Below, piece after piece: positions 22,321 to 33,287 of a stretch of DNA of 64,000 bases (position 1 is the first letter of the stretch; each line of letters starts with the position of its first letter). The stretch is from Candidatus Latescibacterota bacterium (GTDB lineage Bacteria > Latescibacterota > UBA2968 > UBA8231). A program made the position numbers and the translations under genes. Where the stretch lies: positions 1,568,001 to 1,632,000 of the forward strand of contig OZ242318.1 in assembly GCA_965208105.1 (NCBI GenBank), read 5' to 3'. The notes under the pieces are model-generated. The model had not been told where the DNA came from. It worked only from the letters and a program-made list of their open reading frames with translations, and made no database searches.

Positions 22321-23136
22321 CTACAGGTCCAACAGGGAGGGCGGGTCCGCCTCGGGATAGTTGTCGAGATAGCTCTGGATGTACTGCCGCGTAATGGCGG
22401 GCATCTGCCCAAGATGCCCCGGCCGGGTCAATGAATCGCGCTGTCCGTACTCGTGGGTCATCACCGTCGCCTCCGCGTGCCAGAAGGTGCAGTGCATGGT
22501 CCAGCGCTTGCGCCCCTCCGGGTTCCAACCCCGGTGCCACAGGTTGGCGTTGTAGTAGACGATGTCGCCCGGTTCCAGTTCGACGACGAGGGCGTTGGGC
22601 ATCTTCCCCGATTCGCTGCGGGACGCTTCGATCTCCGCCGCGGTCGAAGCCCGCCGGTGACTCCCGGGGACGATGTGAAGAAAGCGGTCCCCGGGAACGA
22701 GCGGTGCGTTGAACTGCGCGAAGCTGCCCTCGTGCCGGAGCAGGTAGGCGGTTTCGTCGGGATCTCCCGGTCTGCCGAGGTCGCGGTGCCATTTCTGGAT
22801 GTACGGGTCCCCGCCGCCCGAGGCGAGCATGCCGAACAGGCTGTGGCGCACGCCCCGGCCGCGGATCAGGGCCGCGAGATGGGGGGCGAGGTCCTCGTCG
22901 ATCCAGTCGGCGAAGGCGGGGTGGTACTTGTCGGGGTTGAGCAGGTGGCTGGTGCGGGACGGCAGACGGCGCGCGCGGTCGATCCATCCCAGCTCGCACT
23001 CTCCCGCAAGCCCCTTGTCGATCATGCCTTCGACCGCTTCGAGAAGCCCCTCCATGCGGGTTTTGGCAAAGGCCTGGCGCAGAACGAGAAACCCCTGTTT
23101 GGCGTAGGTCTCCTTGTCTTTTCCCGAGATCACCAT
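22321..23136 (-). CDS. PhyH-like Fe/2OG dioxygenase
   Basis: Motifs YAKQGFLV, WHRD, VPGSH and LWHRG. Start could extend to 23193. Confidence 0.85.
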   Translation of the reverse strand: MVISGKDKETYAKQGFLVLRQAFAKTRMEGLLEAVEGMIDKGLAGECELGWIDRARRLPSRTSHLLNPDKYHPAFADWIDEDLAPHLAALIRGRGVRHSLFGMLASGGGDPYIQKWHRDLGRPGDPDETAYLLRHEGSFAQFNAPLVPGDRFLHIVPGSHRRASTAAEIEASRSESGKMPNALVVELEPGDIVYYNANLWHRGWNPEGRKRWTMHCTFWHAEATVMTHEYGQRDSLTRPGHLGQMPAITRQYIQSYLDNYPEADPPSLLDL

Positions 23137-23902: not shown

Positions 23903-24035
23903 GATACCCTTCCGTTCATGCGCCTGACGTGAATTCAGCGGTGAACCGCCTCTTCGAGCGCCGATGCCGCTGCGCAATGCCTGCAAAAATAAGGCTCTAT
24001 CTCTACCCCTCTGTCAAGGACTGAACCCACCCAGG

Positions 24036-24116
24036 GGAGATCAGGTTGAGGCGGTCCCCGCCCAGTTGCACCAGGCGCTGGAAGGGGTAGAAATTGCTGT
24101 GGGTGAACTTGACGCC
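24036..24116 (-). repeat. 81-bp orphan copy of an internal piece of the DHDPS-family gene (32715-32795)
   Basis: 78 of 81 positions identical by manual alignment. Confidence 0.85.
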
Positions 24117-24120
24117 CCAG

Positions 24121-25053
24121 CTAGAAGCGCTCGCGGGTTGCCCACGCCTTGATGAGGTGATGGGCGATGGCGATGGGCCCCGGCAGGGTCAGCCGTTGGC
24201 TCCTGCCCTCCAGGGCCTGCAGCACCTCCCTGCGCTCGAACCAGTGGACGTCGGACATCTCCTCTTCATCCATGCGGATCGTCGTCGTCTCCGCCTCGGC
24301 GAGACAGCCTATCATCAGGGAGCTGGGAAAGGGCCACGGCTGGGAGGAGTGGTATCTGACGTTCTTCACGCGCACACCGGCTTCCTCCATCACCTCGCGC
24401 GCAACCGCCTCCTCGATGGATTCGCCCTGGTCCACGAAGCCCGCCAGGGCGGAGTACATGCCCATGCGCGACAGGCGGCCGCGCGACTGGCCCAGCAGGC
24501 AGCGGTCCGCGGCCGAGTCGCCTACCACGGTGATGACCACGGGGTCGGTGCGCGGAAAGTGCTGGGCCTGGCAGGCGGGGCATTCGCGCACCTGGCCGCC
24601 GCGCCTGCTCTCGGTGGGATTGCCGCACACGGCGCAGAAGCCGTGCCGGTTGTGCCAGTCCAGGTGGGCCCGGGCGTGGGCCAGGATACCGGCTTCCCGG
24701 CCTTCCAGCAGGCTCCCGGCGGCGCGGCAGTCCTCGAAGCGCCAGGGCGGGTCCTGCCCCTGGGCCCAGGACGTCACCTCCGGGCAAGCGGTCAGGTCCA
24801 TCGCGAAATGCGCCGCTCCATCCGACAAACCCAATAGCAGGGGCATGGCATCGGGCTCCAGCGAGCGCAGCCGGTCCGCGGTGAGCCAACCCAGCCGCGG
24901 CTGCGGGTCACCGGTCAACAGGACCTCGAGATTGCGAAAGGGAATGAACCTGCTGGAGGAGGCGCGCGCCGCGGATTCGATCCAGGCTTCATCCCGCCGT
25001 TCCTGCTCACCGCGGTCGAGGGGATTGCCAGCGAAGGTATGTAGGTGTCTCAC
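24121..25053 (-). CDS. nudC: NAD(+) diphosphatase NudC
   Basis: Zinc ribbon CAVC..CPAC, FPRTDP, Nudix box AGFVDQGESIEEAVAREVMEE, and SQPWPFPSSLM. Confidence 0.9.
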   Translation of the reverse strand: MRHLHTFAGNPLDRGEQERRDEAWIESAARASSSRFIPFRNLEVLLTGDPQPRLGWLTADRLRSLEPDAMPLLLGLSDGAAHFAMDLTACPEVTSWAQGQDPPWRFEDCRAAGSLLEGREAGILAHARAHLDWHNRHGFCAVCGNPTESRRGGQVRECPACQAQHFPRTDPVVITVVGDSAADRCLLGQSRGRLSRMGMYSALAGFVDQGESIEEAVAREVMEEAGVRVKNVRYHSSQPWPFPSSLMIGCLAEAETTTIRMDEEEMSDVHWFERREVLQALEGRSQRLTLPGPIAIAHHLIKAWATRERF

Positions 25054-25115
25054 CAGGTGGAATCCATCCTTGTTTTCCTTGAAGAGCGATCATCAAAGAC
25101 CAGTCCGGTCCAGCT

Positions 25116-25344
25116 CCGGACCAAGTGTCCCGTCGCAGAAATATGTCGCCATTATTCCGCCGATCCATCCCGGCTCACGGCGTTGCCTTCACTCGCCGTA
25201 CACCACTGGTACGACTCGCTCAGGCGCCTGGTGAGCCGGGCGCCTCGGCGGCCCAATTTCGTCACCCTATCTCTGCGACGGGACACTAACAGGCAACTTA
25301 CAAAATTCCCACCTTGAGGCAATGGAATCGACAATTGCCTGCCG
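25116..25344. repeat. 229-bp direct repeat, copy A (MITE plus flanks)
   Basis: Nearly identical to 26347-26575 (offset 1231). Confidence 0.9.
25125..25286. mobile_element. 162-bp MITE, copy 2
   Basis: Same terminal repeats and body as copy 1, in opposite orientation. Confidence 0.85.
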
Positions 25345-25570
25345 GGTGGCGGCCTTCGGGTGGCATCTGCTTCCTGCTCTTTCCATCCCCGGCTTCCCGT
25401 GCTTGTTTCAGAGGTCCAGAGGCATAGCGCAGATGGACTTCATCAAGGTACTTCGCTTGTGGTCGAGGGGCGGCCCAAGCAACGATAAGAACAGGAAAAT
25501 TGGAAGGGTAGGGCATAGTTGGATCGGGGAACACCTGAGTAAACAAGCCGTAGAAGAGCAAAATCTTCTA

Positions 25571-25599
25571 TTGACACAACTACGGGATTCCCGTATGTT
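25571..25599 (+). promoter_or_regulatory. Sigma70 promoter with an overlapping palindromic operator for the TA operon
   Basis: TTGACA-17-TATGTT with palindrome TACGGGA-T-TCCCGTA (25581-25595). ATG follows 6 nt after the -10, suggesting a leaderless transcript. Confidence 0.75.
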
Positions 25600-25605
25600 C
25601 ACCTG

Positions 25606-25875
25606 ATGGAATTCGAATGGGATGAGAACAAAGCGGCGATGAATCTGGCCAAACATGGAATTCCGTTTGAATATGCCGCGCGAGTTTTTCTCGATCCCTA
25701 CCGTTTAGAAGAAGAGGACCTGATAGAGTACGAGGAGGAAGTGCGCCATCGCGTCATTGGAATGGTCGATGATCGCGTATTGCTTGTAGTCTATGCAGAA
25801 GGTTTTTCACAAACTCGAATCATCTCTGCCCGGAGGGCAACGCGTCATGAGCGAAGAAAATACCACGAAATTTAG
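25606..25875 (+). CDS. BrnT-family toxin
   Basis: MEFEWDENKAAMNLAKHGIPF...RIISARRAT..ER..Y. Confidence 0.9.
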   Translation: MEFEWDENKAAMNLAKHGIPFEYAARVFLDPYRLEEEDLIEYEEEVRHRVIGMVDDRVLLVVYAEGFSQTRIISARRATRHERRKYHEI

Positions 25876-26215
25876 GCTGGACGAAAAGAACCTGCCGCGT
25901 TTGAGCAAGTCCCAAGCGCAACGTCTCGATTCCATGAGTGACGAGGAGATCGAGAAGGCCGCGTTGTCCGATCCCGACAATCCCCCTTTGACTGATGAGG
26001 GACTCGGAGCATTCGAGCGCGTTCCTGACGCCAAGGCGATCCGCAAAGCTCTGCATTTAACTCAGCGCGAATTCGCCATCACATTTCAGCTCTCTTTGGC
26101 GACGGTACGGGACTGGGAACAGGGGCGCTACCAGCCGGATCAGGCGGCCCGTACGCTTCTGCGCGTGATCGCCCGCGACGCCAAAGCGGTCAAGCGCGCC
26201 CTGGAGAGGTCTTAA
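25847..26215 (+). CDS. Antitoxin with an Xre/HigA-type HTH
   Basis: Motifs SDPDNPPLT and IRKALHLTQREFA...TVRDWEQGR..PD..AR.LL. Overlaps the toxin gene. Confidence 0.85.
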   Translation: MSEENTTKFRLDEKNLPRLSKSQAQRLDSMSDEEIEKAALSDPDNPPLTDEGLGAFERVPDAKAIRKALHLTQREFAITFQLSLATVRDWEQGRYQPDQAARTLLRVIARDAKAVKRALERS

Positions 26216-26353
26216 GCCGGTCACGATAACCCACCGACCAGACTCTGGACCTACGCTTCGAGATCGCGGGTCAGCTGTTCCACCGTTTCTCTCTTCAGAT
26301 TCCTGTAGGTAACACAGTCTTCCCGGAGATCTTTCGGTTCACCGACCCGGACC
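26192..26353. repeat. 162-bp block (antitoxin tail plus acyltransferase 3' end), duplicated at 29774-29935
   Basis: About 13 mismatches in 162 nt by manual alignment. Confidence 0.9.
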
Positions 26354-26575
26354 AAGTGTCCCGTCGCAGAAATATGTCGCCATTATTCCGCCGATCCATC
26401 CCGGCTCACGGCGTTGCCTTCACTCGCCGTACACCACTGGTACGACTCGCTCAGGCGCCTGGTGAGCCGGGCGCCTCGGCGGCCCAATTTCGTCACCCTA
26501 TCTCTGCGACGGGACACTAACAGGCAACTTACAAAATTCCCACCTTGAAGCCATGGAATCGACAATTGCCTGCCG
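26347..26575. repeat. 229-bp direct repeat, copy B
   Basis: Nearly identical to 25116-25344. Confidence 0.9.
26356..26517. mobile_element. 162-bp MITE, copy 3
   Basis: Identical to copy 2 as read. Confidence 0.85.
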
Positions 26576-26637
26576 CATGAAGACGGCGCGCAATCGTCCC
26601 ACCGGTAAGCGTCTCCAACTGAGATGTATTGAGAGTG

Positions 26638-26863
26638 CTACGCTTGAAGAAATTCTTCTGCGGTCACCCCGGCTAGCTTCAGAATCGCTACCAGGGTTCC
26701 TTCCGGCAAATCCCCGGGGTGATTTGGGATGGTCGTTCGATGGGAGGGCAGCAGGGTTCCACCAGATCTCGTGGCTGCCTCGCGCTTGCCGGTCAAACGC
26801 GAATCCCAACCGCCGTTATTTGTTCGTCACCTGTCGATAGGCAAAACCTGCCAGTCGCCCCAT
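26638..26863 (-). pseudogene. hicA: HicA toxin pseudogene
   Basis: MGRLAGFAYRQVTNK*RRLGFAFDRQARGSHEIWWNP, then a frameshift to TTIPNHPGDLPEGTLVAILKLAGVTAEEFLQA*. Internal TAA at 26816-26818. Confidence 0.8.
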
Positions 26864-27108
26864 CAGCCCCCTACAGGAACGTCCAGTTCGACCAACTCCC
26901 GGCTCATGGTATGTAATCCGTCTGGCAGAGCGTCCCCTCTTTCCCGGTAGGATTCAATCAGCTTTCTTGCCACATCTTGAGCGATTTCAACTGTTTCAGC
27001 TACCGTTCTCCCTTGTGCTACCAGACCGGGAAAGTCCTCTGCAGTTGCCAGGTGCTGTCCGTTTTCTCCCCGCCTGATATAAAGATGCAGTCTATATTCT
27101 TCTGACAT
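26863..27108 (-). CDS. hicB: HicB-family antitoxin (short form)
   Basis: Motif FPGLVAQGRTVAETVEIAQDVARKLIES..ERGD.LP. TGATG coupling to hicA. Confidence 0.85.
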   Translation of the reverse strand: MSEEYRLHLYIRRGENGQHLATAEDFPGLVAQGRTVAETVEIAQDVARKLIESYRERGDALPDGLHTMSRELVELDVPVGG

Positions 27109-27180
27109 CCTTGGCTCCTTGGATTACTTCCGCCTGAAGACGACGCCGACCTCCACCCACCAAACCGGGTAAACTCCAGG

Positions 27181-28233
27181 TCAAGGTCCCCTCATCTTCT
27201 TCTTCACCTCTCCCCAGCTAGCTCGCTGAACCGGCGTCGCTACATCTGCTCCATAGGATTTGATTTCCGCGTCCAGGAATTTCAGGATTCTTTCCTGCCC
27301 TGGCCGTTTATACCAAACGGCTATCTTGTCGCCCCTGGGACTCCATTTTGGAATCGAATAATAAGGCTCGATGCTTTTCCGATAAATATCTACGGGCCCA
27401 GTCACGGCAGCATCGACTGCGCGGGTGTCCAGGATAAACAAAATCCCAAAACAGGTAAATACCATGAGTTTGCCATTGGGAGCCCAGGACGGATTACCGC
27501 AGGGATAATAATCGCTTAATTTGGTGAGGTTTCCTGAGTCCACGCCGATCATATAGATGCCCGCTTCCGGCTGAGACACCCATATACCTTCATCCAATGT
27601 TGCAGTGGAAAAGACCATGCGGCCATAATAATAATCGCCTATGGCTCTAAGAGATCGAGCGCCTCCCTCCGGATTCAGCACATGATAATATGTCTGGTAG
27701 GTATTCATCAGGCCACGGAAATAGCTGTATACAATCCCTTCCCTCACCCACATATCAATGCCAGCTTCTTCGTTCCATACCCTAGATATTTCCTGTAAAT
27801 CCGATCCATCGCGGTTCATGGTGTAGATGATCGTTTCTACCCAGGCATCGGAATCAGGAGGATCGTATTGCCTGTAAGTAAAGGCCAGGCGTTCGCCGTC
27901 TGGAGACCAATGAGCACAAGGACCATATCTTCCTTCATCTCTATTCTTTCCATGAGTAAAAATCGAACGCCCACCCGATCCATCGGCGTCGAGAATGAAG
28001 ATCTCATTGGTCTCTTGGAAGTTTTCTTTCAGGGAGATCGCATCTCCCTGTGGCGACCATTTCGCGCATCCTGAATAATCCAATACTCGATCTGGCCGAT
28101 CTTCATCGACATAGCGAATCGTTATGAGTCCATCTTCATAGTCATGGATTAGTACCGCATCTCCTGCCGGAGACCAGGAAACAGCCAAAGCCTGGGAGGA
28201 AATTGCAATAATAAGAACAAGAATGAATAGCAT
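27181..28233 (-). CDS. Secreted TolB/PD40-type beta-propeller protein (lower GC)
   Basis: Signal peptide MLFILVLIIAISSQALA, repeated WSP(D/Q/R)G motifs, and tail TPVQRASWGEVKKK. Confidence 0.75.
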   Translation of the reverse strand: MLFILVLIIAISSQALAVSWSPAGDAVLIHDYEDGLITIRYVDEDRPDRVLDYSGCAKWSPQGDAISLKENFQETNEIFILDADGSGGRSIFTHGKNRDEGRYGPCAHWSPDGERLAFTYRQYDPPDSDAWVETIIYTMNRDGSDLQEISRVWNEEAGIDMWVREGIVYSYFRGLMNTYQTYYHVLNPEGGARSLRAIGDYYYGRMVFSTATLDEGIWVSQPEAGIYMIGVDSGNLTKLSDYYPCGNPSWAPNGKLMVFTCFGILFILDTRAVDAAVTGPVDIYRKSIEPYYSIPKWSPRGDKIAVWYKRPGQERILKFLDAEIKSYGADVATPVQRASWGEVKKKMRGP

Positions 28234-28340
28234 GATTTCCCTATATTTCTGATTATCCAGATCAGAATTCACCTTCTTTTTAATTTCCCCCCAGCTCTCG
28301 CCAGGGCATCCCTTACGGCGAACAGAAACGAATACTATCA

Positions 28341-28387
28341 TTGACACGACTACGGGAATCCCGGGTGTCCGCCTTATGAAATTCGAA
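28341..28387 (+). promoter_or_regulatory. Degenerate copy of the TA promoter/operator and first codons
   Basis: 28340-28387 matches 25570-25617 at 40 of 48 positions, with the same TTGACA-to-ATG distance. Confidence 0.75.
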
Positions 28388-29797
28388 AGAAAAGTTTCCA
28401 TGGCACCGCTTTCCACCCGCGTCACCGCCACGCTGTCCAATGCACCGGAGGGCAGCAGCATTTTCGCCAGCTTCCAGCAAACCCCTGTCTACCACAAACC
28501 TGTCACCGTCGAAGCCGCCCTCGACGAAAAGGGCTGTCTGGCGGTGGACCTTCCGCTCACCGAAGCGCACATGGTCTCGGTCAGTTTCGAGGAGGAGGTC
28601 AAGCTCTTCCTGGAACCGGGCGATCAGTTGCACATCGACGCGGATGTGCTCGACCTGCCCCGGTCTCTTCGCTTCTCCGGCAGGAGCGCCGGCAACAACC
28701 AGTTCCTCGCCGCCCTGCGGTCCCGCTTTCCCGATTACCTGCGCATCGGCTACAAGGACCTCGAGGCCGACGCCTTTCGCCTGATGATCGACCGGCGACG
28801 CTCGGAATTGGAGAGCTTCCTGGAAGAGGGTTGCAGCCAGACCCAACTCACTCCGGGGTTTATCGCCTTCTACCGGGCCGAGATCACCTATGAGTGGGCC
28901 ACAGAGGTGGTTTCCTATCCGCGCAACTACGAGAGAGAAAACGGCAGGAAGAACAAAGCCCTCTCCGCGGGCTATTTCGACGTCCTCGATCAAGTCGAAC
29001 TGGTCGACGAAGCGGCCATCGGCACCACCCATTACCGCCGATTTCTGGAGGGCAATTTTCTGCGCCATTTCTTTCGCCTATGGGAAGAAAGGGGAAAGCA
29101 GCGCGACATCGAGCAAATGCCTGCCGAGGAACCCCAGGTCTTTGCCGAGACCTACTCCGACTACAATCAGGCCAAGCGGAAACTGCACGGCAAAGTCCTG
29201 TTCTTCTTTCTCGCCGGTGAAATCGTCCGGGACTTTCTCTACGGGCGATATGACCAGGGGGAACAACGCCTTGCCGGATTCCGCCAGGACAACCCATATC
29301 CAGAATACACCGAAGCCGTAGAGGAAGTCGCACGGGAAACATCCAGGCTCAAACCCGGTGAGCCCGCCCCCGACTTCACCCTCGACGACCTCCAGGGCCG
29401 AAGCGTCTCCCTGAGCGATTTCAAAGGGCAGGTGGTTTTCCTGGACTTTTGGGCAAGTTGGTGTGGTCCCTGCATCGAGGCATTACCCCATCTGGAAGAG
29501 ATCAAACGGCGGACCCGGGACCTGAAGGTGGTCTTTCTGAACATCTCTCTTGACCGCGCGAACGAGTGGCACCAGGAGGTGGAAGAGCACCGCGTGACTG
29601 GAGTCCACGTTCACGCCCCGGACGGCTGGAAAGCCGAAGCGGCTCAGTTGTACCAGGTCCAGGGAATACCCTCCTATTTCCTGGTAGGTCCGGACGGCCG
29701 GATGGCTGCCCGCCCTGAGAATGTCTTCGATGTTGCCGCGGTGGTCGCCCGCATTGAGGAATTGGCATCCAGGAAGCGCGCCCTGGAGAGGTCTTAA
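28376..29797 (+). CDS. TlpA/ResA-like redoxin with a large N-terminal domain
   Basis: Motifs PAPDFTL, LSDFKGQVVFLDFWASWCGPC and GIPSYFLV. Confidence 0.85.
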   Translation: MKFERKVSMAPLSTRVTATLSNAPEGSSIFASFQQTPVYHKPVTVEAALDEKGCLAVDLPLTEAHMVSVSFEEEVKLFLEPGDQLHIDADVLDLPRSLRFSGRSAGNNQFLAALRSRFPDYLRIGYKDLEADAFRLMIDRRRSELESFLEEGCSQTQLTPGFIAFYRAEITYEWATEVVSYPRNYERENGRKNKALSAGYFDVLDQVELVDEAAIGTTHYRRFLEGNFLRHFFRLWEERGKQRDIEQMPAEEPQVFAETYSDYNQAKRKLHGKVLFFFLAGEIVRDFLYGRYDQGEQRLAGFRQDNPYPEYTEAVEEVARETSRLKPGEPAPDFTLDDLQGRSVSLSDFKGQVVFLDFWASWCGPCIEALPHLEEIKRRTRDLKVVFLNISLDRANEWHQEVEEHRVTGVHVHAPDGWKAEAAQLYQVQGIPSYFLVGPDGRMAARPENVFDVAAVVARIEELASRKRALERS

Positions 29798-29802
29798 GCC
29801 GG

Positions 29803-31020
29803 TCAGGATAACCCACCGACCAGGCTCTGGACCGACGCTTCGAGATCGCGGGTCAGCTGTTCCACCGTTTCTCTCTTCAGATTTCTGTAGGCTTGGTAGT
29901 CTTCCCGGAGATCTTTCGGTTCGCCGACGCGTACCGACGCCACCCGCGGTCCGCGCATTTCGGACTCGCCGAAGACTTCCCTTTCAAGACGGAGAATCAC
30001 GTCGAGGAAGCGCTCCGGAGACGGCTCTTCGGCAACGTACCCGTCGGATATGGAAATGAAATTGATCAACCGCTCCAGATCGGGATAGAATTGCTGGAAT
30101 TTCCGGAGCTGCTCTTCATGAATCTTGCGCTCGTACTCCGTCATCTGCTCGACGTCCCTGTAGATCTCCGCATCGACCAGAATCTTCAACGCGCGCGTCC
30201 TCGCGAGAATGTCGGATTCAGCGCGGATGCCCATGATCCCCTCGGCCCGGGACAGGATCGCGTCCTTCAACCTTTCGATGTGCAGGTCAAAGGAAACCGT
30301 TTCGTCCGCCTGGTACTGATACTCCGCTGCGAGTGTCCTGAATAGCGCCACACCGACGCGGCGTAAGCGGTCGTAGCGTTCCACCGGCGTCCGTTCGGCC
30401 GGCGGGAGGATGTTTCGTTCCAACCTGGTGAGGGCCGCGTCGATGGAATTCCACATGTCGCGCGGATAGCGGTATTTTATTCCGACCGGCACGGCAAACA
30501 GCGGTCTGCCGGCCTCCGCTTTTTCCATATCGTCCAGTGCCCAGAAGCACATCTGGACAATGCCTCTCTCGAAGCGCATGACGGTGTCGTTCTGGCGCGA
30601 AATTTCCCCTTCGCCAAAGATGACGATCGGCCAGTCCCCCCTGGACAAAAGCTCCCGCGTCGTGCGGAAGGCATCTCTGTCTGCAGTGCCGCGCACGACC
30701 GAGTAAACACCGGCCCGCTGCATCAGCCAGCAGCGGAAAGCCCCGAACCTGCCCCGGTCGAATGTCTCCCGAGCGGCCATATAGTAGAAGGGTTGAGACA
30801 GCCGCTTCGACAACAGAAACATGACCACGGGATCTTCGTGCGCCGGATGATTGGGAGCCAGGACCGCGGAATGCCCGTGAATGGCCTCCAACCGGGCAAT
30901 GGACTCCGCATCGACATCCAGGGTCAACCCTTTCAGGTAGAAGCGATTCACCAGCGGCATCAGTGCCTGAACAACTCGAATCGTGGTCACACTCGGTTCA
31001 GGTGGTTTGAAATCCTGCAT
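29803..31020 (-). CDS. Phospholipid/glycerol acyltransferase (PlsC-like, long form)
   Basis: NHPAHED (HxxxxD), YMAARE and IFGEG. Confidence 0.85.
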   Translation of the reverse strand: MQDFKPPEPSVTTIRVVQALMPLVNRFYLKGLTLDVDAESIARLEAIHGHSAVLAPNHPAHEDPVVMFLLSKRLSQPFYYMAARETFDRGRFGAFRCWLMQRAGVYSVVRGTADRDAFRTTRELLSRGDWPIVIFGEGEISRQNDTVMRFERGIVQMCFWALDDMEKAEAGRPLFAVPVGIKYRYPRDMWNSIDAALTRLERNILPPAERTPVERYDRLRRVGVALFRTLAAEYQYQADETVSFDLHIERLKDAILSRAEGIMGIRAESDILARTRALKILVDAEIYRDVEQMTEYERKIHEEQLRKFQQFYPDLERLINFISISDGYVAEEPSPERFLDVILRLEREVFGESEMRGPRVASVRVGEPKDLREDYQAYRNLKRETVEQLTRDLEASVQSLVGGLS

Positions 31021-31105
31021 CGCGTCCTGTTTTGGGTCGAACGGGGTGTTGGTCTTTGAGGTGTATCGCCCGTAACCCCGGAGCGGTCCACGAGGGCCGG
31101 CCAGC

Positions 31106-32380
31106 TCAGCGCAGGAAACAGGGGGAGGCCTCGGCCACCGCTTCGGGGTGAATGACGCGCAGGGCAAGCCCGCCTTCCCCGTCGTCCTGCCACTGGATCT
31201 GGAGGCCCTTGAGCGCGCGCTGGGCTCCGGCCTGCCGGTCGCCGAGGGGATACACGCGGAACGGACCCAACACCGTCTCGGTCTCGAGGGCGAAAAGGTG
31301 GTCGCGGATGGCGGCCGGATCGAGCTTCCCGGTGGCCGCCAGCGCCGCTTCAATGGCCTCGGCGAGGAGCTCCACCGCTCCGAACCCACCCGCCGGCCGG
31401 TGGTCCGGGCTCGATTCCTCCGAGGCTTCGTACCTGGCGACCAGGGTCTCGCTGTCTCCGATGAATCCGGATGTGCGAACCGCCGGAATCCAGGGAGCCC
31501 CTCCTGCCACGCAGCGGGCCAACTCCCCCACTCCGGCGACAAACACGGGACTTGCCGGACCGGGCACGCTCAACATCCGGGGCACGTATCCGCTCCGGGC
31601 TACGGCTTTGCGCAATTCGACCAGGTCCTGACCGTAGCCGCCGATCGCCAACAGATCCGCATCCGCCTCCCTGGCGGCCGCCGCAAGAGCTCCATATTCG
31701 GCTTCTCCCACCTCGTAGGCCTGGTCCAGCACGAGGTTGAGCCCGTGCGCCTCGGCGGTCTCGCGCACACCTTTGGCCAGGGAGCGGGGAAATGCGGTGT
31801 CCTCGTAAATCAGGGCGACGGTGTTGTCTCCGGCCTGTGCCGCCAGCTCCACCGAGCCCTGGAGATACGTGAATCCAGGATTCAGCATCTGAACGCTCCA
31901 TTGCCGCTGCTGGTCCACCCAGAGTTCGGGAGCCGAGGCCAATGGGGCGACAAAGGGCATGCCCGCCGCTTCGACCACCGGGAGTACGGACTCGGTGATC
32001 ACGCTGCTGTATGGACCGAGCATGGCGTGGATCGAGTCGGAGGAGACGAACCCGGAGTAGAGGCCGGCGCTCTTCCGCGGATCGCTCTCGTCATCGCGAA
32101 TCACCAGCCGCACCGGCCTGCCGGCGATGCCTCCCCTCTCGTTCAGCAACTCGACGGCCAAACGGTAGCCGAATGCAAGTCCATTGCCCGCGCCGGCAAA
32201 CCTCCCGGTCTCGGCGAGAGCGGCCGCCAGCCTTACAGGTTCCGCTTCCGGCTCCGGTCCCGCCGGATCGTCGCCGCAATGGACTGCCGCCAGCGCTAGA
32301 ACGGCAAGGCCGAGGAGAAAGATCGAAGACCGAAGGGAGCTGCCCGGATTCCGGGTATATCGATATCCATCTTTCATCAT
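31106..32380 (-). CDS. Branched-chain amino acid-type ABC substrate-binding lipoprotein
   Basis: Motifs NERGGIAGRPVRLVIRDDESDP and LGPYSS; lipobox-like AVHC. Confidence 0.8.
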   Translation of the reverse strand: MMKDGYRYTRNPGSSLRSSIFLLGLAVLALAAVHCGDDPAGPEPEAEPVRLAAALAETGRFAGAGNGLAFGYRLAVELLNERGGIAGRPVRLVIRDDESDPRKSAGLYSGFVSSDSIHAMLGPYSSVITESVLPVVEAAGMPFVAPLASAPELWVDQQRQWSVQMLNPGFTYLQGSVELAAQAGDNTVALIYEDTAFPRSLAKGVRETAEAHGLNLVLDQAYEVGEAEYGALAAAAREADADLLAIGGYGQDLVELRKAVARSGYVPRMLSVPGPASPVFVAGVGELARCVAGGAPWIPAVRTSGFIGDSETLVARYEASEESSPDHRPAGGFGAVELLAEAIEAALAATGKLDPAAIRDHLFALETETVLGPFRVYPLGDRQAGAQRALKGLQIQWQDDGEGGLALRVIHPEAVAEASPCFLR

Positions 32381-32387
32381 GAGGCCC

Positions 32388-33287
32388 TCATTCCACAGTG
32401 AATTCGAGGTCGTCGAGCTCCCGGCGCAGGGCGGCGCGGTCGGCCTCGTCGAGCGCTGCGCGGGGCGGGCGCACCGGACCAACGGCCAGCCCGCGCATGG
32501 CGAGAATCTCCTTCACCGCCCCCAGCACGTCGAAGCGCATCAGGAGGGCGATCACCTGGTTCGCCCTGGCCTGCAGGTCCATGGCCGGGCGGATACGGCT
32601 CTCCTCGAAGAGCCGGCGCATCTCGACGAACAGCCTGGGCATGATGTTGTAGGTGGAGCCGATGGCCGCGTCGCTGCCGGCGACCATGCCGCCGAGGCAG
32701 ATCTCGTCCGGTCCGGAGATCAGGTTGAGGCGGTCCCCGCCCAGTTGCACCAGGCGCTGGAAGAGGTAGAAGTTGCTGTCGGTGAACTTGACGCCGCTGA
32801 AGTTGGGGACGGCTTCCATGGCCTCGAGGAACTGCTCGGCCGAAACTCCCCGTGCCGCGGTGCGCTCGATCCAGTAGACGTAGAAGGGCAGATTGGTGGC
32901 GGCTCCGATGGCGGCGTAGTGGGCGACGGCGGCCTCGAGGTCGTTGGGCCGGTCCACCGGGGCCACCGACGCAACTCCGTCGGCCCCCTCCGCGGCGGCG
33001 TGCCGGGCAAGCTCCACCGCGTTGGCGGTCGAGGTGGCGCCGACCTGGAAGATCAGGGGCACGGCACCGGCCACCGCGGCGATGGTCGTCTCGGCCATGG
33101 CCTTGCGCTCGGCCACGCTCATGGAGCCCCCTTCCCCCGTGCCGCCGCAGACGAAGAAGCCGCCTGAGCCGGCGTCGATCAGGTGCCCGACCAGGGGCTC
33201 GACCCGGTCCGGGGCCAGGGCCCCGCCGTCGTCGGTGAAAGGAGTGACGAGGGCGGGCCATATCCCGCGCGCCAGTTTTCCGGCCAT
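32388..33287 (-). CDS. DHDPS/N-acetylneuraminate lyase family aldolase
   Basis: Motifs PALVTPF, CGGTGEG, ERK and GVKFT (Schiff-base Lys). Confidence 0.85.
   Translation of the reverse strand: MAGKLARGIWPALVTPFTDDGGALAPDRVEPLVGHLIDAGSGGFFVCGGTGEGGSMSVAERKAMAETTIAAVAGAVPLIFQVGATSTANAVELARHAAAEGADGVASVAPVDRPNDLEAAVAHYAAIGAATNLPFYVYWIERTAARGVSAEQFLEAMEAVPNFSGVKFTDSNFYLFQRLVQLGGDRLNLISGPDEICLGGMVAGSDAAIGSTYNIMPRLFVEMRRLFEESRIRPAMDLQARANQVIALLMRFDVLGAVKEILAMRGLAVGPVRPPRAALDEADRAALRRELDDLEFTVE

Follow-up and report, generated by a model that had tools for sequence, protein, structure and literature searches.

A gene whose first and last codons come from a neighbouring toxin-antitoxin (TA) cassette raises the question of whether the cassette has acted as a device for capturing genes or whether recombination has left its two ends around an unrelated gene. 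Such a gene, encoding a TlpA-like thioredoxin-fold protein, is found in the window, the 64,000-nt stretch of Latescibacterota DNA that we analysed. The window is part of a single-contig genome of 4.85 Mb (4,846,116 bp; G000), and the public runs that contain it are for the most part sponge metagenomes. A preliminary description had proposed that a duplicated TA cassette was used as an expression shell whose cargo was swapped. Our analyses indicate that the gene is a real chimera and that most likely it is a recombination scar rather than a gene-capture device. Between 24 and 32.5 kb, the gene order is a NudC-type hydrolase gene (minus strand), repeat D1, brnT, an HTH antitoxin gene, repeat D2, the second copy of D1, hicA/hicB (minus), a TolB-like beta-propeller gene (minus), the tlpA-like ORF, the second copy of D2 with an acyltransferase gene (minus) and a LivK-type binding-protein gene. 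The features that the argument requires are the following.

25116..25344: first copy of D1, a 165-nt palindromic MITE-like element (25124-25288) preceded by 8 nt and followed by 56 nt
25570..25617, plus strand: P, the intact promoter/operator block of the brnT operon, with 10/12 promoter consensus matches
25606..25875, plus strand: brnT toxin gene, 89 aa, Pfam BrnT_toxin
25847..26215, plus strand: antitoxin gene, 122 aa, with a C-terminal HTH, overlapping the end of brnT and ending in AVKRALERS and the stop codon
26192..26353: first copy of D2, made of the terminal 24 nt of the antitoxin gene, a 5-nt spacer and a 133-nt acyltransferase 3' fragment (26221-26353, minus strand)
26347..26575: second copy of D1, with the MITE-like element at 26355-26519, abutting the acyltransferase fragment
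28319..28387, plus strand: P', the remnant of a brnT cassette 5' end, defined by the block match and by homology to the relative G010 from 28319
28388..28394, plus strand: seven bases at the 5' junction, between P' and the native tlpA segment
28395..29773, plus strand: native tlpA segment, with its own ATG at 28400 and a CxxC thioredoxin-fold domain in the C-terminal third
29774..29797, plus strand: antitoxin-derived tail, KRALERS and stop codon, which now terminates the tlpA ORF
29774..29935: second copy of D2, running into the full-length acyltransferase gene
29803..31053, minus strand: acyltransferase gene, 416 aa, convergent with tlpA, the two stop codons being 5 nt apart

The intact cassette served as the reference. 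P contains a -35 box (25571-25576, TTGACA), an operator palindrome (25581-25595, TACGGGATTCCCGTA) and a -10 box (25594-25599, TATGTT), followed by the ATG of brnT at 25606, a -10 to ATG layout that implies a leaderless message. The toxin matched BrnT_toxin (PF04365) with 87 bits (cut-off 34.5) over profile positions 1-77 of 77. The antitoxin scored 23.8 bits with HTH_3 (cut-off 23) in the Pfam profile search, and its MqsA_antitoxin, HTH_31, Aca2 and MqsA/NadS-type matches were every one below their own cut-offs. BrnT/BrnA is a type II TA system of Brucella abortus. The cassette studied here resembles it in that a BrnT-family toxin comes first, its gene overlaps that of the antitoxin and a palindromic operator lies within the promoter. 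It differs in the implied leaderless layout and in the antitoxin, which has an Xre/MqsA-type C-terminal HTH and gave no match to BrnA_antitoxin, the Pfam family of BrnA antitoxins. The palindrome, present between the -35 and -10 boxes in all 12 promoter blocks compared below, is a putative operator. When G000 was compared with genus g13, dS was 0.21-0.23 for both cassette genes and 0.86 for the acyltransferase gene, and this low cassette dS relative to that of the acyltransferase gene indicates that the brnT cassette is mobile.

The 5' end of the chimera derives from such a cassette. Positions 28340-28387 are identical to P at 40 of 48 positions without any gap, while the second-best ungapped match to this 48-mer, over all genome positions and both strands, reached 29/48. 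P' contains an intact -35 box (28341-28346, TTGACA), an operator, a -10 box and the brnT-derived ATG at 28376 with three further codons, and the ATG lies 35 nt from the first base of the -35 box in both P and P'. Its -10 box (28364-28369) reads GGTGTC instead of TATGTT, and its operator (28351-28365, TACGGGAATCCCGGG) has one full half-site and a right arm in which 5/7 bases are left, both outer bases having been lost. Measured against G010, the promoter copy extends upstream to about 28319, and the sequence 5' of this point is unrelated to the region upstream of P. The promoter scan found no site at P', and no sigma-70-type promoter was detectable between the TolB-like gene and tlpA.

The ORF at 28376-29797 encodes MKFERKVS-MAPLSTRV...ELASR-KRALERS, in frame across both junctions and intact over 473 codons. 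Its product carries WCGPC and matched AhpC-TSA (68.8 bits), Redoxin (61.9 bits) and Thioredoxin_8 (55.3 bits) above the cut-offs; its scores with the equivalog models were lower than required (ResA, 73.1 bits against a cut-off of 170; TlpA, 50.1 bits against 230), and the approximately 300 N-terminal residues matched no family. In order to locate the native ends, we aligned 119 TlpA homologues with 63-77% identity. The homologue start coincided with the M9 column (ATG 28400) in 116 of them, and the remaining three had longer called N-termini with at most two identities to MKFERKVS. Neither an MKFE/MEFE start nor KRALE near the end was present in any of the 119 sequences, and a native tail of 16-19 residues past the R466 column, found in 104/119 homologues, is missing here. 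The homologue N-termini read MAPLSTRVTATL and are not hydrophobic-looking by eye. Similarly, DNA homology to the G010 and G016 orthologues was confined to 28395-29773 (G010 covers 28395-29760 and G016 covers 28415-29773). Both orthologues carry GGAG 7-8 nt before the ATG, and the same ribosome-binding site is present in two contigs of co-resident relatives, which diverge just before 28395 and 28398; it is missing in the G000 tlpA. G000 has only one tlpA orthologue in its genome, and its nearest homologues are 76-77% identical.

At the level of sequence, these comparisons confirmed that both termini are foreign to TlpA. Tails of the AV.RALE type are native to the antitoxin homologues, so KRALERS is of antitoxin origin, except that the AAG codon at 29774 could stem from either parent. 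The preliminary description had assigned both flanks of tlpA to the brnT/antitoxin cassette, with a copied promoter, operator and first four codons, equal spacing, a damaged -10 box and operator arm, a tail identical over 24 nt and two in-frame junctions, and this picture stands, supported by the unique match of P' and the antitoxin-type tail. Its account of an unrelated ORF lying between the cassette ends also holds, with the added detail that tlpA has kept its own ATG.

The 3' junction involves a third gene. The genome contains two exact copies of the 24-nt tail, at 26192 and 29774 (next best, 18/24), and the tail belongs to the 162-nt repeat D2 (26192-26353 and 29774-29935; 92% identity). 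The match had been rightly described as continuing beyond the tlpA stop codon; what needed correction was its nature, since the 138 nt past the stop are coding and contain the final 133 nt of the convergent acyltransferase gene (29803-29935). Divergence within D2 is uneven, the first 31 nt being identical and the remainder about 10% different, and when polarised with four outgroups the derived changes numbered 6 in copy 1 and 5 in copy 2, with 2 ambiguous. Because D2 carries the acyltransferase end, as a fragment in one copy and as part of the whole gene in the other, the antitoxin and acyltransferase genes were joined first and the joint was then copied as a unit. In addition, a contig of run X7 with a depth of 17.6 joins 26314 to 29897; it shows 4 differences over 178 nt, and its shorter arm at the joint is 68 nt long. 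This joint reaches acyltransferase sequence beyond D2, so that a close strain has the antitoxin gene directly abutting the acyltransferase gene. The antitoxin/acyltransferase joint is thus older than the tlpA insertion and is found elsewhere too. The X7 joint itself could reflect a later deletion between the D2 copies rather than the older state.

The brnT unit sits between the two copies of D1 (229 nt, 99% identical), and the joint between the D2 fragment and the second D1 copy shows a 5-nt microhomology, CGGAC. The MITE-like element within D1 has inverted arms that form a predicted DNA hairpin (-48.7 kcal/mol, z-score -6.8), as expected for a MITE. It occurs with 93-99% identity in at least 39 other places of G000, a count based on 40 scored candidates out of 167, and is also found in G001. 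A contig of run X8 lacks the second MITE copy: its joint is 26353>26521, with 26354-26520 replaced by three other letters.

Related cassettes were then used to assess what usually remains of such an operon. The promoter core TTGA....ACTACGGGA.TCCCG was present in 7 of 76 family genomes, G000 included, as well as in three metagenome contigs and one Planctomycetota MAG, and a reversed control pattern gave 0 hits. We aligned 12 promoter blocks, including P and P'. The operator core was invariant in all of them, and the TA that starts the -10 box, whose bases double as part of the operator right arm, was kept in 11/12 and lost in P' only. Downstream of the blocks we found an intact toxin-antitoxin pair in six cases, and in one case each a toxin gene with a stop codon and a frameshift (G069), an antitoxin gene with a stop codon (G054), a toxin gene shortened to 19 codons (L071), another first gene (L064), a bare stub beside unrelated DNA (G010) and the tlpA chimera (P'). 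Erosion is common in the brnT cassette family. Chromosomal TA loci have been described as lying where gene turnover is high and as being lost via deletion or toxin pseudogenisation, with DNA remnants left behind (Belot et al. 2026, PMC13617665). The related cassettes, with their broken toxin genes, truncated toxin and promoter stub, resemble the erosion outlined in that study; the tlpA locus differs in that both cassette ends survive and enclose, in frame, an unrelated intact gene. None of the 11 other promoter blocks had foreign cargo between both cassette ends, which lends no support to the suggestion that TA loci offer a route to cargo exchange. As for the G010 stub, the best candidate for an antitoxin tail within 15 kb matched at 27/48, which is chance level.

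A co-resident relative provided a further form of the cassette. At position 25837, which appears as a loose end in X1, a joint in X7 and a contig start in X5, its promoter and start codon run directly into the sequence that begins 10 nt 5' of the antitoxin ATG, so that the toxin gene has been almost wholly deleted and the antitoxin gene retained. We also considered whether the X7 joint 28378>25837, with four letters between, represented P' followed by the antitoxin gene. This reading was rejected on account of the g13-type promoter letters and of a match to G072 past the antitoxin stop codon, and the joint more likely belongs to the cassette of a co-resident genus-g13-type organism.

On this evidence, tlpA has probably taken the place of the interior of a second brnT/HTH-antitoxin cassette, one formerly arranged tail to tail with the acyltransferase gene, and the locus is probably a scar with a chimeric ORF. 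The cassette ends that flank tlpA comprise promoter, operator and 4 codons on the left and the last 7-8 codons with the stop on the right. The tlpA piece runs from about 8 nt 5' of its own ATG to about codon 458, without its own ribosome-binding site or native tail. The history would have begun with a brnT cassette and the acyltransferase gene facing each other tail to tail. The segment from brnT codon 5 to antitoxin codon 114 would then have been swapped for the tlpA piece by illegitimate recombination that used very short homologies, perhaps by template switching or by double illegitimate integration; no more than the AAG codon is shared at the 3' joint. Later on, an intact cassette together with 133 nt of the acyltransferase 3' end would have been joined upstream of the tlpA allele, by a homologous joint on the left (the MITE-containing repeat) and an illegitimate 5-nt joint on the right, which would yield the collinear block pair. 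The promoter remnant would have decayed afterwards. With its promoter remnant decayed, the present structure is better described as a scar with a chimeric ORF than as a working capture device.

Replacement and joining would differ in mechanism. In T6SS effector displacement, as outlined in one report, incoming modules oust residents and orphan pieces remain (PMC5361080). Homology-facilitated illegitimate recombination is reported to anchor one end by homology and to join the other at a microhomology of a few bases (PMC3240628). We invoke the latter process only for the join between the intact-cassette unit and the tlpA allele, which the 99% identical D1 flank and the CGGAC joint fit; unlike the process described there, the tlpA replacement has a homologous anchor on neither side. 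Tandem duplication followed by divergence would give the same picture and the same topology as this joining step, and may have been the route. A single simple duplication does not fit, since the block identities are unequal (D1 99%, D2 92%, P 83%). Moreover, when compared with 10 other cassettes, P and P' each hold derived changes of their own and each keep consensus states that the other has lost. Together with the derived changes in both D2 copies, this points to diverged lineages or alleles and not to the parent and fresh copy implied by the notion of a duplicated cassette. Deletion-only models were discarded, none of them yielding both junctions, because the end of tlpA joins the end of the antitoxin gene. 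For the site that separates the acyltransferase gene from the TolB-like gene, no intermediate, whether an intact or a half-eroded cassette, was found. The one genome of the same genus, G001, has neither brnT nor the antitoxin gene nor a tlpA orthologue at the locus, so that the ancestral state is not readable from it; its acyltransferase gene is located elsewhere with no cassette adjoining. Run X5 covers 26.5-30.1 kb and leaves 25342-25683 uncovered, which would fit a tlpA-allele strain without the intact cassette; this reading was set aside, as missing cover is not evidence. Finally, the tlpA piece fits the single ORF tightly, beginning about 8 nt from its start, which is rare under random breakpoints and hints at selection or at several trimming steps.

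A rival reading is that the structure has been co-opted, tlpA being transcribed from the remnant promoter and translated without a leader from the brnT-derived AUG, with the intact copy's antitoxin as its repressor in trans. We regard this as unlikely, although several observations are in line with it: P' has retained the -35 box, the spacing and one complete operator half-site, the 473-codon ORF is intact with a dN/dS of 0.29-0.30 relative to its orthologues, and GGAG is missing where two orthologues and two metagenome contigs have it, so that the upstream in-frame ATG may matter for translation. The open frame at both junctions also favours co-option, but it would arise by accident in about 1 in 9 cases. 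Furthermore, the TA of the -10 box that 11 of the 12 blocks keep has been lost, these two bases being shared with the operator right arm, and the promoter scan was empty at P'; both results likewise leave the idea of an expression shell weak. A related strain in run X5 showed 9 non-synonymous and 5 synonymous differences in the native part, which hints at relaxed constraint within the limits of a partial list and small numbers.

Separate grafting, in which tlpA already lay beside the acyltransferase gene and the cassette ends were added in independent events, is in our view improbable. For instance, recombination with its anchor in the acyltransferase homology could have overwritten the tlpA tail with 29 nt of the antitoxin end, the promoter stub being added on another occasion. 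The acyltransferase part of D2 would indeed supply a homologous anchor for a 3' graft, the division of D2 into 31 identical nt and a rest that is about 10% different agrees with it, and a LivK-type gene within 1.3 kb in both G000 and G016 suggests that tlpA may be old in the neighbourhood. However, the 5' side offers no homologous anchor, since the stretch 5' of 28319 shows no relation to what precedes the intact promoter. Both ends of a single cassette would also have had to arrive around tlpA in correct order and orientation through two events independent of each other.

We judge it very unlikely that the locus reflects a dedicated exchange of cassettes, site-specific or integron-like, with the TA ends or the flanking repeats as recombination sites. 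The family does show recurring single-gene insertions with long direct repeats (the acyltransferase gene with repeats of about 85 bp in three genomes, the empty site being present in a fourth), G001 shows an empty site for hicAB, and the 229-nt D1 repeats enclose the brnT unit. Nevertheless, these repeats are copies of unique sequence adjacent to the insertions plus the MITE-like element and not a common site, the microhomology at the junctions amounts to just 3-5 nt, and among the examined blocks no second locus with cargo between both cassette ends was found. An assembly artefact fusing unrelated pieces at repeats, for which the presence of repeats including an element with at least 39 other copies might speak, is hardly credible, as blocks of 83% and 92% identity are too diverged to collapse and contigs of public runs bridge both junctions, which the preliminary description had itself asked to be verified. 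Specifically, the 5' junction is spanned by X1 record 6 (1910 bp, 26519-28428) with 0 differences, X1 being the only run that spans it and possibly the source sample, and the 3' junction by X5 record 16 (29512-30100) and X8 record 31 (29656-29827), which come from two other studies.

Read as a scar, the locus is a clean, dated case of the death of a chromosomal TA cassette, whose ends now supply an unrelated gene with its initial and final codons. A narrow literature search revealed no other case in which the two ends of an eroded TA cassette surround a gene in frame. TA erosion can generate chimeric ORFs and orphan operators before ordinary genes, and both the true start codon and the foreign origin of the termini would escape automated annotation. 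The locus also illustrates allele-level turnover in one symbiont species through short-homology joints and a MITE-like element. It is quite doubtful that the remnant still works, with a leaderless tlpA message from the brnT-derived AUG gated by the HTH antitoxin 2.5 kb upstream, and that cassette ends act as single-gene landing pads in sponge symbionts. If the remnant did work, the TA module would have gained a redox enzyme as a trans-regulated client, and if the remnant operator still bound the antitoxin, this would be a natural route to extra antitoxin targets. The MqsA antitoxin has been reported to act at rpoS and csgD, through operators outside its own operon (PMC4894380). The present case resembles what is described there in having an antitoxin operator-like palindrome upstream of a non-TA gene, and differs in that the predicted site is a damaged copy that would have been delivered by recombination.

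Other genes of the region showed their own signs of turnover. An orthologous acyltransferase gene (about 1.26 kb) lies just 5' of the brnT promoter in genus g13, with direct repeats of about 85 bp on either side, in three genomes (L058 7076-8504, from G074; L060; L062). G072 (L059 8842-8926) has one copy of the 85-bp sequence and no acyltransferase gene, that is, an empty site. The gene has yet another context in G001 and behaves like a movable single-gene unit. Similarly, the hicA/hicB pair (26651-27144) is an insertion relative to G001, which has the joined empty site (L046 1858-1915), and the insert is bordered in G000 by a 10-nt near-repeat (CGCTTGAAGA / CGCCTGAAGA). The family profile matched hicA over its C-terminal half only, and the related strain of run X5 has one base fewer at 26742, indicating that hicA may be frameshifted in G000. 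The TolB-like beta-propeller gene (27181-28236) has a sole paralogue in G000, 47% identical, and a search of 40 relatives gave no match at E <= 1e-30; relatives thus offer no context for it, and it is an accessory gene of the G000 lineage. Across 24000-32000 there were no Rfam matches at E <= 0.1. The tlpA orthologues are split by frame changes, one in G010 (L010) and two in G016 (L011), reflecting either decay or errors of long-read assembly. The LivK-type gene lies less than 1.3 kb from tlpA in both G000 and G016, in equal orientation and permuted order: LivK-type gene then tlpA in G016, and tlpA, acyltransferase gene and LivK-type gene in G000. Comparisons of permuted neighbours (31106-32482 with L048 10250-11470 of G016, and 22321-23136 with L058-L060) suggest repeated duplication-and-loss or translocation in the region.
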